This document shows positions 51,046 through 54,807 of a DNA stretch of 54,807 bases, piece by piece; position 1 is the stretch's first letter; every line of letters begins with the position of its first letter. The translations under genes and the position numbers were made by a program. The DNA lies in sequence record SRR22947725_419; one strand, written 5' to 3'. The notes beneath the pieces were generated by a model that was not told the DNA's origin, did no database searches, and saw only the letters and a list, made by a program, of their open reading frames with translations.

Positions 51046-52328
51046 TGCAATTTTATTTGAAGGGAGGACATTGGGCTTGTAGCTTCGAATTTACGATTAA
51101 TTCGTTTACCCACTACCCAAACAATAGCTGATCCAGAGCACAACAACCATTGCTCTTGCTTTTCCCTAGATGACAGTTTCTCATCTTTAAAAAATTTTGA
51201 GAGTTTTTTCTTTCCTGACATTCCAGAAGGATAAAACGCATCCCCCATTTTCCATCGTCGTAAAACCAATGGGAAATCCAATTTATCAGCATCCAATAAA
51301 ACGCAAGAATTGGATGGTTTATCATCAAATCCTTTAGTTGCAATCTCTAACTTAATTGGGGTATTGATTCCTGTTATGGGTACTAAATACTGGTCTTGAG
51401 TAGCTGTCGGTTTAGAAGGACACTTATGTAGGACTAAATGATGACGCTCGCGTAGGAGTTCGTGACTCTTACTCAAAGATTTCTTACCCGAATGGGTTTG
51501 CAATAGTTTGAGTACTTCTTCATGGTCAAAGCCATAGGGGGAAAACAGATGATGCAACCAAAACGATTGTGGAACTAGGGCTTCAATTGAGTAAATCGGT
51601 ATTTCAGCTGAACCATCAATTTCTTTCCAATGCCCCTTAATTTCAGTCAGCTGCTCAGAAATTGCATCAAAACTTTCTGCTATGTAACGTATAGATTCTA
51701 AGGTATTTGTTGCTGCTTGAGGTGAACTACTCAAAAAAGCTGGCATTACATTGTGCCGAATGGCGTTACGTAAATACTTAGTAGAACTATTAGACATGTC
51801 TTCCCGCCATTGTAGCTTGTTTTCTTTGGCGTAGTTCAAAAGCATCTCTTTAGAAAAAGGTAATAATGGACGAATTAGAAATCCATTACGTTCGCGAATC
51901 CCTCCTAAACCTGCTAACCCACTCCCACGACTGAGACGCAAGAAAAATGTTTCTAATTGATCGTCGGAATGATGGGCTGTAAGCACCGCATCAAACCCAT
52001 GGTTATTTTTAACCTTCTCAAAAAAAGCATAGCGCAACTCCCTAGCTTTTTCTTGGATTCCCGAAGCGTCAGGTTTAATTGGTTCGGATTCTGAATAGCA
52101 ATGAACCTTTAGTGTTTGAGCAAGTTCTTCTACGAATTCTTGATCTAAATCACTGTCTACCTCTCTAAGTTTATAATTTACATGGGCTAGTGCAAAAGTA
52201 TATCCACAAGCCTCTAACATATGTGCCAGAACGACGCTATCCATACCCCCACTTACAGCCACCAAAAATCGGTGCGTGGCCGGAGGTCCTAAAGAACCGA
52301 GTAAATGCGTATTAAACTTTGGATCCAT
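51042..52328 (-). CDS. tilS: tRNA(Ile)-lysidine synthetase
   Basis: AVSGGMDS, ARELRY, TAHHSDDQLET, IRPLL, EDMSN, RNAIRH, C-terminal domain. Confidence 0.96.
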   Translation of the reverse strand: MDPKFNTHLLGSLGPPATHRFLVAVSGGMDSVVLAHMLEACGYTFALAHVNYKLREVDSDLDQEFVEELAQTLKVHCYSESEPIKPDASGIQEKARELRYAFFEKVKNNHGFDAVLTAHHSDDQLETFFLRLSRGSGLAGLGGIRERNGFLIRPLLPFSKEMLLNYAKENKLQWREDMSNSSTKYLRNAIRHNVMPAFLSSSPQAATNTLESIRYIAESFDAISEQLTEIKGHWKEIDGSAEIPIYSIEALVPQSFWLHHLFSPYGFDHEEVLKLLQTHSGKKSLSKSHELLRERHHLVLHKCPSKPTATQDQYLVPITGINTPIKLEIATKGFDDKPSNSCVLLDADKLDFPLVLRRWKMGDAFYPSGMSGKKKLSKFFKDEKLSSREKQEQWLLCSGSAIVWVVGKRINRKFEATSPMSSLQIKLQ

Positions 52329-53625
52329 AACGTACCGGGCTAACAGGTTGATTTGCCAATAGTTGCTTAATCGCTTTTACTTTAAGCTGACATTCTTCAT
52401 ATTCTTTTTCCACATCTGCTGCTGCGGTAAGGGCACTTCCCACATGCGCAGAAATGTACCGTTGATCAGCATCATACACCAAGCTACGTATAACGACATT
52501 AAAATCAAAGTCACCATTAGGAGCGAAATAACCAACAGCCCCGCTATACAATCCGCGCTGACTATTTTCATATTGATTAATCAACTCCATGGCACGTTGT
52601 TTTGGCGCACCAGTCATGCTTCCCATCGGAAAACAGGCATTGATAATATCAAGTGAAGAAGTGTTTGTGTCACAAGTAGCGGTAATGGTGGAAATCATTT
52701 GATGTACCTGAGCAAAAGGATAAACAACACATTGCTCTTCAACAGTTACTGACCCCTTTTGGGCTACTCGAGAAAGATCATTGCGGACTAAATCTGTAAT
52801 CATGATGTTTTCCGAGCGTTCTTTACTGTCCTCTTTTAAATTTTGTGCGGCAGCGGCATCCAATATTGGATCAAGATGTCGAGCTGCTGTTCCTTTTATA
52901 GGTTGTGACTTTAATGCATTTCCACGACGTTGTAAAAAGCGTTCAGGGGAAGCGCACATCAAATGAATATCATCAATGTTTACATAGGCTGCATAGGGTG
53001 TTTTTGCAATTTCATTAAGTGCTAAAAACAACGATGAAGGTTGAATATCAATATTTTCAGCATACCATTCTACACAGTAATTAATTTCATATATGTCTCC
53101 GCGAAGAATATGCTCTTGTAGCGCTTGAGCTTTTTCTACATACTGATGTCTAGAGACGCGTGGGGATAAATCAATTGATTGGCTTTGAGGGTGAGTTTTA
53201 AGGATAGAATTTTTCAACTGGATGAAATCTACAGCTGGATCATCAACTCCGCTATAAAGCGCTGTAAGGGTTGATCCTTTTAAAAGCCAAATCTTCTCTG
53301 GAACAAAAAATTGAAGTGTCGGGATTTTTAAATATACAGGATTCGTGGGAGAAACACATTCCCAGTCCTGAGCATATTCATAACTAAAAAAACCAAATAG
53401 CCAATCCTTACCCAGAAACTGAACAAGTTCTTTTTGGGTAGAAAGTTGTGCGTTTTCATGTGCTAAACCAATACCCAAAATTGCATCATATTCTCGCCGT
53501 TGGTGTGGGTATTCATTAGAATCATGCCAAGACACAGGAGAAGTATCCTTTGCCCAAGAAAACAAGCGTTGTTTGATATCAGGAATATCTTGAACGTTAA
53601 ATACTTTTTTAGTGCGATGTACCAA
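52312..53625 (-). CDS. pabB: Aminodeoxychorismate synthase component I
   Basis: ASPERFL, QPIKGT, ENIMITDLVRNDL, PMGSMTGAPK, RGLYSG, VVIRS. TAATTTTG promoter motif at 53652-53645. Confidence 0.88.
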   Translation of the reverse strand: MVHRTKKVFNVQDIPDIKQRLFSWAKDTSPVSWHDSNEYPHQRREYDAILGIGLAHENAQLSTQKELVQFLGKDWLFGFFSYEYAQDWECVSPTNPVYLKIPTLQFFVPEKIWLLKGSTLTALYSGVDDPAVDFIQLKNSILKTHPQSQSIDLSPRVSRHQYVEKAQALQEHILRGDIYEINYCVEWYAENIDIQPSSLFLALNEIAKTPYAAYVNIDDIHLMCASPERFLQRRGNALKSQPIKGTAARHLDPILDAAAAQNLKEDSKERSENIMITDLVRNDLSRVAQKGSVTVEEQCVVYPFAQVHQMISTITATCDTNTSSLDIINACFPMGSMTGAPKQRAMELINQYENSQRGLYSGAVGYFAPNGDFDFNVVIRSLVYDADQRYISAHVGSALTAAADVEKEYEECQLKVKAIKQLLANQPVSPVRYGSKV

Positions 53626-53670
53626 AGAGAATGTTCGTTTGAAACAAAATTAGTCAAATGAGTAAGGAAA

Positions 53671-53702
53671 TTGTCATAACAGTGAAAAAAAATATATATT
53701 TG
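53671..53702 (+). promoter_or_regulatory. arg operon promoter TTG-N21-TATATTTG
   Basis: Exact -7 element at 53695-53702 and TTG at 53671-53673. Confidence 0.7.
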
Positions 53703-53706
53703 CATC

Positions 53707-53769
53707 ATGACTGTAAGTAATATTTTACCGTTTTCAAACACACCGCGTTTCCGTCGCCCCTTGGGGTGA
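53707..53769 (+). other. Candidate Arg-rich leader peptide ORF, 20 aa (MTVSNILPFSNTPRFRRPLG)
   Basis: ATG 4 nt after the -7 element; three Arg codons within four codons near the 3' end; lies upstream of the arg genes. Confidence 0.6.
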
Positions 53770-53846
53770 TCGCTTCTTCTATGAAACCAAGGTGTGTCCG
53801 GTTTCCTCCCTCGTCATTTATCAGTCCAATTTTTTTTTAATTTATC

Positions 53847-54437
53847 ATGGAAATTCAAGTTGCTAAACGCATTCACGTAAAGTATGCATCCATTATTTCA
53901 GAAACGATTTCTTCTTCTGCACAAGTACGAGGAACAGGAATTGCTCGCCGTACACCTGAATATATTCAGAAAAAAATAGAATCAGGTGATGCCATAATAG
54001 CTCTTGATGGCGAAACCTTTGCCGGTTTTTGTTACATAGAAGCATGGGGGCATGAAAAATATGTTGCGCATTCAGGATTAATTGTCGCTCCAGTTTATAG
54101 AGGAATAGGATTAGCGAAAAAAATCAAGACCCAAATTTTTGCTTACACAAAAGAAAAATACCCAAATGCCAAAATATTTGGGATAACAACTGGTTTGCCA
54201 GTAATGAAAATTAATTATGATCTAGGCTATAAGCCCGTCACTTTTTCACAGCTTACCGATGACCCATCCTTTTGGAAAGGGTGTCAAACCTGTAAAAATT
54301 ACGATGTGCTTACCCGAACCAACCAAACCATGTGCTTGTGTACTGGAATGCTTTACGATCCTGCTGTCAAAAACAGCAATGGCATTGTTGGTAGAATTCA
54401 ATCTTTTAAAAAAGCTTTTAAACGAGAAAAAAAATGA
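53847..54437 (+). CDS. GNAT acetyltransferase, probable Bacteroidota-type N-acetylglutamate synthase (ArgA function)
   Basis: RGTGIARR, GFCYIE.W, SGLIV...RGIGLA, FGITT, FWKGC..C..C.C; translationally coupled to argG. Confidence 0.8.
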   Translation: MEIQVAKRIHVKYASIISETISSSAQVRGTGIARRTPEYIQKKIESGDAIIALDGETFAGFCYIEAWGHEKYVAHSGLIVAPVYRGIGLAKKIKTQIFAYTKEKYPNAKIFGITTGLPVMKINYDLGYKPVTFSQLTDDPSFWKGCQTCKNYDVLTRTNQTMCLCTGMLYDPAVKNSNGIVGRIQSFKKAFKREKK

Positions 54438-54807
54438 AGAAAAAATTAGTTTTAGCCTATAGCGGAGGCCTAGACACCTCGTATTGTGTAAAGTCACTTA
54501 GCCAGCAAGGCTATGAAGTACATGCCGTAAGTGTTAACACCGGGGGATTTGATGCTAAAGAAGTAACAGCGCTTGAAACAAAAGCACTTTCTTTAGGAGC
54601 ACACTCCTATAAAAGCATTGAAGCTGTAGAAACATTTTACCAAGACATTGTGAAATATTTAGTGTTTGGAAATGTGTTAAAAAACAGCACCTATCCATTA
54701 TCGGTAAGTGCAGAACGCGTTACGCAGGCGGTAGCCATTGTAAACTACGCAAAGGAAATTAATGCGACATCTATTGCTCATGGAAGTACAGGTGCAGGAA
54801 ATGATCA
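54434..54807 (+). CDS. argG: Argininosuccinate synthase (3'-truncated by the window; absent from the ORF track)
   Basis: MKKKLVLAYSGGLDTS...YPLSVSAER...IAHGSTGAGND. ATG overlaps the GNAT stop (ATGA). Confidence 0.96.
   Translation, partial: MKKKLVLAYSGGLDTSYCVKSLSQQGYEVHAVSVNTGGFDAKEVTALETKALSLGAHSYKSIEAVETFYQDIVKYLVFGNVLKNSTYPLSVSAERVTQAVAIVNYAKEINATSIAHGSTGAGND

Follow-up and report, generated by a model that had tools for sequence, protein, structure and literature searches.

A conserved Arg-codon mini-gene and two-hairpin leader upstream of the arginine operon in Flavobacteriaceae, with a candidate Rho-dependent read-out

An arginine biosynthesis operon of a marine flavobacterium in sequence record SRR22947725_419, a 54,807-nucleotide (nt) stretch of DNA that we refer to as the window, is preceded by a leader consisting of a short open reading frame (ORF) that ends in Arg codons, two RNA hairpins and an unstructured tract. 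Comparison with relatives gives good support to the view that this leader is a conserved 5′ part of the arg-operon mRNA, present in a single copy per genome and bound to the genes GNAT (encoding a GNAT-type acyltransferase), argG and argC. We consider it probable that a translated Arg-codon mini-gene is the core of the leader and that ribosomes on it report the supply of arginine, with Rho as the preferred read-out.

A leader bound to the arginine operon

We aligned 21 GNAT homologues and took the best 80 of 597 confirmed genome loci, all of them Flavobacteriaceae by title. The window and 78 of these loci gave 79 usable leaders; L004 and L011 had too little upstream DNA and were excluded. A covariance model, R1, was built from 76 sequences and covers the Arg codons and both hairpins. 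It gave exactly one match each in 80 of the 81 sources, and its match at 53733–53812 on the plus strand (51.1 bits, E = 6.2e-14) was the only one in the 54.8-kb window. Because the ORF and the two-hairpin module recur together in 80 of 81 sources, their combination is more than chance.

The model and the operon's first gene also go together across the family. Among 151 Flavobacteriaceae species genomes, evenly drawn, R1 was found in 93 and GNAT in 98; both were present in 92 genomes, R1 only in one and GNAT only in six. The R1 match lay 38–46 nt upstream of the GNAT match and on the same strand in all ten row pairs that were compared, and a weak R1 match in genome G240 was located elsewhere, away from GNAT. 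When 151 genomes were sampled across Bacteroidia, R1 matched in two, one of which was a source of the model (G004) and the other a false match within a coding region (L129), and GNAT was found in 57. Beyond the family, a short ORF with an Arg-rich C terminus was present at most 300 nt upstream in 17 of the 29 best non-family loci; as controls, the reverse complement and a far-upstream region passed the same filter in 4 and 3 of the 29 loci, respectively. As the ORF reaches beyond the family and the hairpin sequences do not, the translated Arg codons, not the RNA motif, are likely to be the core of the device. Within the family, two loci, L130 (G185) and L132 (G244), carried GNAT without a recognisable upstream leader ORF or hairpins, and the DNA upstream of them was extremely AT-rich.

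A predicted leaderless ORF that ends in Arg codons

A preliminary description of the window, made from its sequence alone, had listed a promoter box, an ORF with clustered Arg codons, a set of competing helices and a run of nine T residues (T9), and all of these were present on re-reading. The box, TATATTTG, is a −7 box of the Bacteroidota sigma-A type TAnnTTTG, read in the sequence at 53695–53702 on the plus strand. It is separated by four bases, CATC, from an ATG at 53707. According to a transcriptome study of Flavobacterium psychrophilum, the sigma-A box TAnnTTTG occupies positions −12 to −5 and leaderless mRNAs make up 5.5% (PMC9723704). Because a box at −12 to −5 puts +1 on the ATG at 53707, the ORF is predicted to be leaderless, with transcription starting on the A of this codon or within about 3 nt of it. 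A box of the −7 type was found in 65 of 80 leaders with its end 3–9 nt 5′ of the start codon chosen, and the distance from the end of the box to the start codon was 4 nt in the clade of the window and about 7 nt in the main group.

The ORF of the window (53707–53769, plus strand) has 20 codons followed by TGA (53767–53769) and encodes MTVSNILPFSNTPRFRRPLG. Three of its final seven codons specify Arg (CGT at 53746–53748, CGT at 53752–53754 and CGC at 53755–53757), and the last of them is followed by a Pro codon at 53758–53760. The expectation that Arg codons and an RRP ending would be conserved among relatives was borne out. A short ORF with an Arg-rich C terminus and a stop codon shortly 5′ of hairpin 2 was found in all 79 usable leaders, and RRP was the commonest ending (57 leaders, against 7 with PRP, 5 with PLG and 10 with others). 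In a typical relative, the ORF has 25–29 codons and ends with RRRP or RRRRP directly before the stop, and in the window and its closest relatives it has 20 codons and ends with PR.RRPLG. The main-group form is carried, for example, by strains of Zobellia, Maribacter, Cellulophaga and Flagellimonas. Of the 79 leaders, 69 have at least three Arg among the last eight residues (40 with three, 25 with four and 4 with five); a further 8 have two and the remaining 2 have one. These Arg residues are encoded by CGT (137) and CGC (160), with only three AGR codons; by comparison, CGT and CGC account for 58% of the Arg codons in the long ORFs of the window. The Arg-Pro end is the sole constant part of the peptide.

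We also examined the reading frame by taking the first start codon no more than 12 nt after the last −7-like box, regardless of its frame. Of 69 distinct leaders, 61 had the chosen start in the frame of the Arg-Pro anchor, and in 60 of these no stop codon intervened. The eight misses arose mostly where the loose box pattern landed inside the ORF, and ten more leaders went uncalled. Start-to-anchor distances were mainly 45, 48, 69, 72, 75, 78 and 81 nt, so that ORF lengths differ by multiples of three. From this we infer that the leader ORF is translated, the frame being kept across length changes as a translated frame predicts.

Some leaders carry further structure within or ahead of this ORF. 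In main-group loci such as L009, L014, L017, L050 and L077, codons 2–5 pair with the segment that precedes the Arg run and enclose a small hairpin. This pairing is kept although the sequences differ by genus, the mean fold z score over the 79 leaders being −1.0, and the clade of the window does not have the structure (z about 0). Twelve of 24 further Flavobacteriaceae regions (L113, L114, L116–L120, L122, L123, L125, L127 and L134) have tandem leaders, in which a second Arg-rich mini-ORF lies upstream. The upstream mini-ORF often reads M..KNKIR... and ends with RRR or RR.. at its stop, with a structure of its own and a long U-rich tract behind it, and the ORF of hairpin 1 begins with GTG right 3′ of that tract.

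Two conserved hairpins follow the Arg codons

Hairpin 1 (53754–53769; TCGCCC, loop CTTG, GGGTGA) was identified by folding and alignment, and its 5′ arm is made up of the final Arg codon and the Pro that comes after it. The four-base loop holds the stop codon in most relatives. The five pairs of hairpin 1 were 92.5% paired and hardly vary; a single compensatory change was seen. Hairpin 1 is thus conserved, and it is hardly tested by covariation because it is nearly invariant. A pyrimidine-rich spacer (53770–53782) leads to hairpin 2 (53783–53805), in which GAAACC, an AA bulge and GG are joined through the loop TGTGT to CC and GGTTTC. The core of hairpin 2, GGTG.G.CC, was invariant in all 77 distinct leaders, and five of its six outer pairs showed compensatory changes, with 50 doubly changed cells as against 13.8 in shuffled alignments; none of 500 shuffles reached 50. 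In the alignment fitted to R1, 94.3% of cells were paired, compared with 27–67% in slid controls, although fitting to the model favours structure somewhat. Both the distance from the stop codon to hairpin 2 and the spacing of hairpin 1, hairpin 2 and the GNAT start are near constant in relatives. Two of the helices in the preliminary description therefore stood when helix covariation was checked, namely hairpin 1, as a conserved element, and the pairing of GAAACC (53783–53788) with GGTTTC (53800–53805), which is the outer stem of hairpin 2 and has compensatory support.

The leader RNA of the window (53707–53846) folds at −30.2 kcal/mol, compared with a mean of −20.98 for dinucleotide shuffles (z = −2.83; 1 of 200 shuffles folds as well), and its minimum free energy fold is the nested structure that the preliminary description had drawn. 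A permissive Rfam scan of 53400–54100 returned only chance-level matches, far below gathering scores. A T-box-like or tRNA-binding reading was dropped as there was no Rfam signal.

A second ORF (53781–53840 in the window) begins with an ATG or TTG at the 5′ foot of hairpin 2 and is at least 12 codons long in most main-group loci. We did not accept it as coding, because the changes in it are those that compensate within the stem, its tail is unconserved and, in divergent loci, it is absent or has three or four codons. This frame often extends to about 30 nt from the GNAT start, and in five loci it is joined in frame to GNAT; a hand-over of ribosomes there is conceivable.

A candidate Rho-dependent read-out

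Downstream of hairpin 2, the window has a G-poor, unstructured spacer (53806–53846, plus strand) that includes CAGTC (53822–53826) and T9 (53830–53838). It is a candidate zone for Rho entry or termination as well as the region of the GNAT translation start. Its 41 nt contain 10 C and 2 G, and its fold energy is 0. Across 78 leaders, the tract between hairpin 2 and GNAT averaged 47 nt, 6.8% G and 19.6% C, with a mean fold z score of +0.5, and C exceeded G in 77 of them; the leader ORF itself is 28.6% C and 17.7% G. The Rho RNA-binding domain was found in 5 of 5 carrier genomes (those of L001, L002, L005, L012 and L080). ArgR, which the preliminary description had cited as the classical regulator of bacterial arg operons, was looked for in the same genomes by its domains PF02863 and PF01316 and found in 0 of 5, three of which are small incomplete assemblies and two of which measure 5.0 and 3.7 Mb, all being genomes of relatives and not that of the window; controls, including Bacteroides thetaiotaomicron, were positive.

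We propose that transcription from TATATTTG would begin on the ATG at 53707 or no more than about 3 nt away from it, and that a ribosome would load at the 5′ end of the mRNA and read 20 codons that end in CGY Arg codons and Pro. The 5′ arm of hairpin 1 is made of these codons, so that hairpin 1 would stay open while a ribosome waits on them for charged tRNA-Arg; this ribosome would also cover the most C-rich part of the leader. With enough Arg-tRNA, the ribosome would reach the stop codon and depart, leaving the leader RNA naked and folded. We infer from this arrangement both that the leader responds to arginine and the sign of the response: a stalled ribosome would permit expression of the operon and a released ribosome would not. 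The result would be arginine feedback in organisms in which ArgR was not found. As the read-out we prefer Rho-dependent termination, which would take place in the 41 nt of G-poor, unstructured RNA that lead up to GNAT. Hairpin 2 may serve as a pause element or as an organiser of the Rho utilisation (rut) site, and Rho would be kept from its C-rich entry site by the stalled ribosome. The window may in addition use a fold switch against hairpin 2, as drawn in the preliminary description. Among read-outs, we rank Rho-dependent attenuation first, followed by intrinsic termination with a lineage-specific switch and then by nascent-peptide arrest at R-R-P.

Several observations weigh against this proposal. 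Three close relatives have a GTG as the start codon at the predicted 5′ end. In favour of the proposal, a 152-nt contig from an RNA library matches 53780–53931 at 100% identity and spans hairpin 2, the T9 run and the GNAT start; it fits a transcript begun upstream of 53780, and is a weak hint at most, DNA carry-over being possible and contigs being unable to show ends. The RNA runs gave only short contigs, and the parts of the leader that they did not cover are uninformative. The Arg-Pro codons are also the C-rich arm of hairpin 1, so that their conservation could be partly structural. The G-poor tract is not specific for Rho and may equally fit the needs of start regions in Bacteroidota, in which translation starts are said to need unstructured, G-poor surroundings. 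The incompleteness and origin of the ArgR-negative genomes described above count on the same side. Finally, no conserved RNA switch was found in the family as a whole. When folding was simulated for 14 leaders with a ribosome footprint at one of three places (first Arg codon, last Arg codon, stop codon), hairpin 2 formed at every ribosome position in 11 of them (the exceptions being the window, L001 and L058), which leaves no obvious RNA switch; hairpin 1 alone was always affected by the position of the ribosome. A conserved ribosome-dependent antiterminator was not found across the leaders. Complementarity of either arm of hairpin 2 to the upstream ORF was that of dinucleotide shuffles (mean z = −0.30 and +0.10, n = 79), and a U-rich tail directly 3′ of hairpin 2 was seen in 6 of 78 leaders and was missing from the other 72.

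A different reading is, in our view, rather unlikely. The module of hairpins 1 and 2 might be an undescribed read-out device, in which, in an organism that makes no use of Shine–Dalgarno pairing, a ribosome held at a leaderless mini-gene whose R-R-P end lies within a hairpin controls the operon without an antiterminator RNA. The ribosome would be held either by lack of Arg-tRNA or by arginine bound together with the nascent R-R-P chain, and it might act by gating Rho, by gating an RNase or by being handed on through the GGTG.G.CC hairpin. If so, arginine synthesis in a large marine bacterial family would be controlled by the ribosome and not by ArgR.

Other explanations for the conserved leader

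Classical attenuation by intrinsic termination, in which hairpin 2, or a long-range helix before T9 in the clade of the window, is the terminator and the enclosing helices form an antiterminator according to the position of the ribosome, is in our view unlikely. The preliminary description had put forward two sets of alternatives to hairpin 2: enclosing helices, in which ACACACC (53738–53744) and GTTTC (53747–53751) pair with GGTGTGT and GAAAC, respectively, of GAAAC...GGTGTGT (53783–53797), and a helix between CCTTGG (53759–53764) and CCAAGG (53787–53792). Within the window these pairings are strong. The pairing against hairpin 2 has an energy of −15.5 kcal/mol (z = −3.4), compared with −6.9 kcal/mol for hairpin 2 itself, and it is the minimum free energy fold; in the simulations, hairpin 2 of the window formed only with the ribosome on the Arg codons, and the free fold and the stop-codon state kept the enclosing helices. 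In L001, L005, L146 and L147, codons 4–8 of the ORF pair with the 5′ arm of hairpin 2. As a general switch, however, neither set survived comparison: over the 77 distinct leaders, the enclosing helices were 52.8% paired, against 51.9% in shuffled columns, and CCTTGG:CCAAGG was 52.4% paired, against 52.4%. Even within the clade of the window (13 distinct leaders, nine of them from metagenome contigs), the pairing against hairpin 2 was weak or placed elsewhere in the 12 closest relatives, with a clade mean z of only −0.78 (n = 13). Moreover, the Arg codons of relatives lie downstream of the proposed 5′ strand, so that a stalled ribosome would sit between both strands. No family-wide signal emerged when the duplex energies of a classical 1:2 / 2:3 / 3:4 scheme were compared with shuffles, and this scheme was rejected. 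A column-pair scan of a 56-sequence alignment found, besides hairpin 2, only short and mostly invariant 4-bp matches.

The six leaders with a U-rich tail right after hairpin 2 are divergent loci that would suit intrinsic termination. In most of the clade of the window, a GACUG at the very 5′ end can pair with CAGUC just before the U run, as part of a tentative long-range helix between 53709–53718 and 53815–53826 that would close the leader just before T9 (mean z = −0.98, n = 13; −2.26 in the window). No compensatory change was seen in this helix within the clade. The remark in the preliminary description that no strong hairpin abuts the U run was confirmed by a terminator scan, which found no such hairpin at T9, the run beginning 24 nt after hairpin 2. 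The scan flagged hairpin 1 and its pyrimidine-rich tail, the spacer at 53770–53782, as the only terminator-like element. We rejected hairpin 1 as a terminator on logical grounds, since a stalled and a passing ribosome would melt it alike. In 72 of the 78 leaders, hairpin 2 lacks the U tract of a canonical intrinsic terminator such as a classical attenuator has before its first gene. A fold switch may thus operate in the clade of the window, but it is not the conserved mechanism.

It is improbable that the nascent peptide senses free arginine, its P-x-R-R-(R)-P end arresting the ribosome near the stop codon and so shutting down downstream expression. This explanation would account for RRP standing immediately before the stop in 57 of 79 leaders, for a Pro that is still found behind the Arg run in leaders whose stop lies 2–8 codons further downstream (the window, L006, L072, L075 and L079), and for parts of the peptide that are conserved with synonymous changes in the lineage with tandem ORFs. 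However, a run of 2–5 cognate codons is the hallmark of sensing of tRNA charge, the peptides differ widely both in how many Arg residues they have and in the rest of their sequence, and the Pro codon also belongs to the arm of hairpin 1.

We regard it as very unlikely that the hairpins, through their GGTG.G.CC core, bind a protein or a small molecule in the manner of a riboswitch, with the ORF being secondary. The core of hairpin 2 stays invariant while its stem covaries, and the near-constant spacing from hairpin 1 to the GNAT start is also what such binding would lead one to expect. But the ORF is under coding constraints and is more widely conserved than the RNA, as the hairpins are unrecognisable outside the family where Arg-rich ORFs persist (17 of 29), and Rfam gave no match. 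That the ORF is a small protein gene of another function, or a product of chance, can hardly be credited, given its single copy, its constant place upstream of the arg operon and a peptide whose one constant part is the Arg-Pro end.

Genes around the leader

The first gene of the operon, identified from the ORF list and the alignment of relatives, lies at 53847–54437 on the plus strand and encodes a GNAT-type acyltransferase of 196 amino acids, which we take to be the first enzyme of the arginine pathway. It is followed by argG, encoding argininosuccinate synthase (54434–54807, plus strand), which is cut off by the end of the window; in locus L080 the order of the operon is GNAT, argG, argC. 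GNAT proteins of relatives matched Pfam PF00583, and the copy in the window matched no NCBIfam model and no Pfam model at E 1e-5. Four cysteines are invariant in GNAT (C146, C149, C163 and C165), which suggests a metal site. The GNAT of the arg operon is not mentioned in the available portion of the GapMind preprint. Upstream of the leader, a pabB-like gene lies on the minus strand (52312–53625), and 81 nt (53626–53706) separate its start from the ATG of the leader. Given this gap between opposed starts, the pabB-like gene and the leader have a short divergent promoter region in common.

Comparison with known leaders

Arginine operons are the textbook case of ArgR repression and do not figure among the amino-acid operons known to be under leader-peptide control. 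The presumed purpose of the leader described here is the same, arginine feedback on arg genes, but ArgR is a protein that acts on DNA. About six in ten of the Flavobacteriaceae species sampled have the leader at their arg operon, and these are almost all of the species with the operon. Full-text searches, which did not extend to subscription-only papers, turned up no leader peptide described for arginine biosynthesis, either in Bacteroidota or in other organisms. Neither the ORF nor the RNA has been annotated so far, and a working covariance model now exists for them, so that annotation should benefit. The leader is also a tractable case for attenuation in bacteria that do not use Shine–Dalgarno pairing.

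In its sensing part, the leader most resembles the leader-peptide attenuators of enterobacteria (trpL, hisL, leuL, thrL, pheL and ilvL). As in these, a short ORF lies before a biosynthetic operon (in all 79 leaders here) and contains a run of codons for the end product (69 of 79) inside an RNA structure, in one copy. The differences are that the amino acid is arginine, that a leaderless mRNA, or one with about 3 nt of leader, is predicted, that the regulatory codons stand at the very end of the ORF and form an arm of hairpin 1, that no conserved antiterminator was found and that 72 of 78 leaders lack a U tract behind the conserved hairpin. By contrast, ordinary hairpin-plus-U terminators are found in the his and ilv leaders of Flavobacterium psychrophilum, and no arg leader is tabulated in the available part of that study (PMC9723704).

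Leader ORFs that work through Rho offer a second comparison, in that the leader has the C-rich, G-poor and unstructured RNA that is typical of them, although this composition is not specific for Rho. Among them, speFL is reportedly the E. coli counterpart of Salmonella orf34, and both share with the leader an upstream ORF with consecutive Arg codons. In Salmonella, where this ORF lies before speF, what becomes of the mRNA depends jointly on two consecutive Arg codons, on Rho and on RNase G (PMC6386406). In the orf34/speFL system, pausing without arginine alters mRNA fate and translation of the ORF counters Rho, whereas for the leader described here a dependence on Rho is only proposed. That system is also proteobacterial, controls ornithine decarboxylase from a long leader, and has no likeness in sequence or structure to the arg leader.

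A third group, comprising E. coli tnaC and the fungal arginine attenuator peptide, senses the free amino acid through the nascent chain. The likeness lies in a short peptide that ends in Pro-stop or nearly so and in a ribosome near the stop that decides the outcome, through Rho in the case of tna. Unlike the arg leader, however, these peptides have no run of cognate codons. We regard the arg leader as a previously undescribed form of leader-peptide attenuation that is widely distributed and unusual in its architecture.

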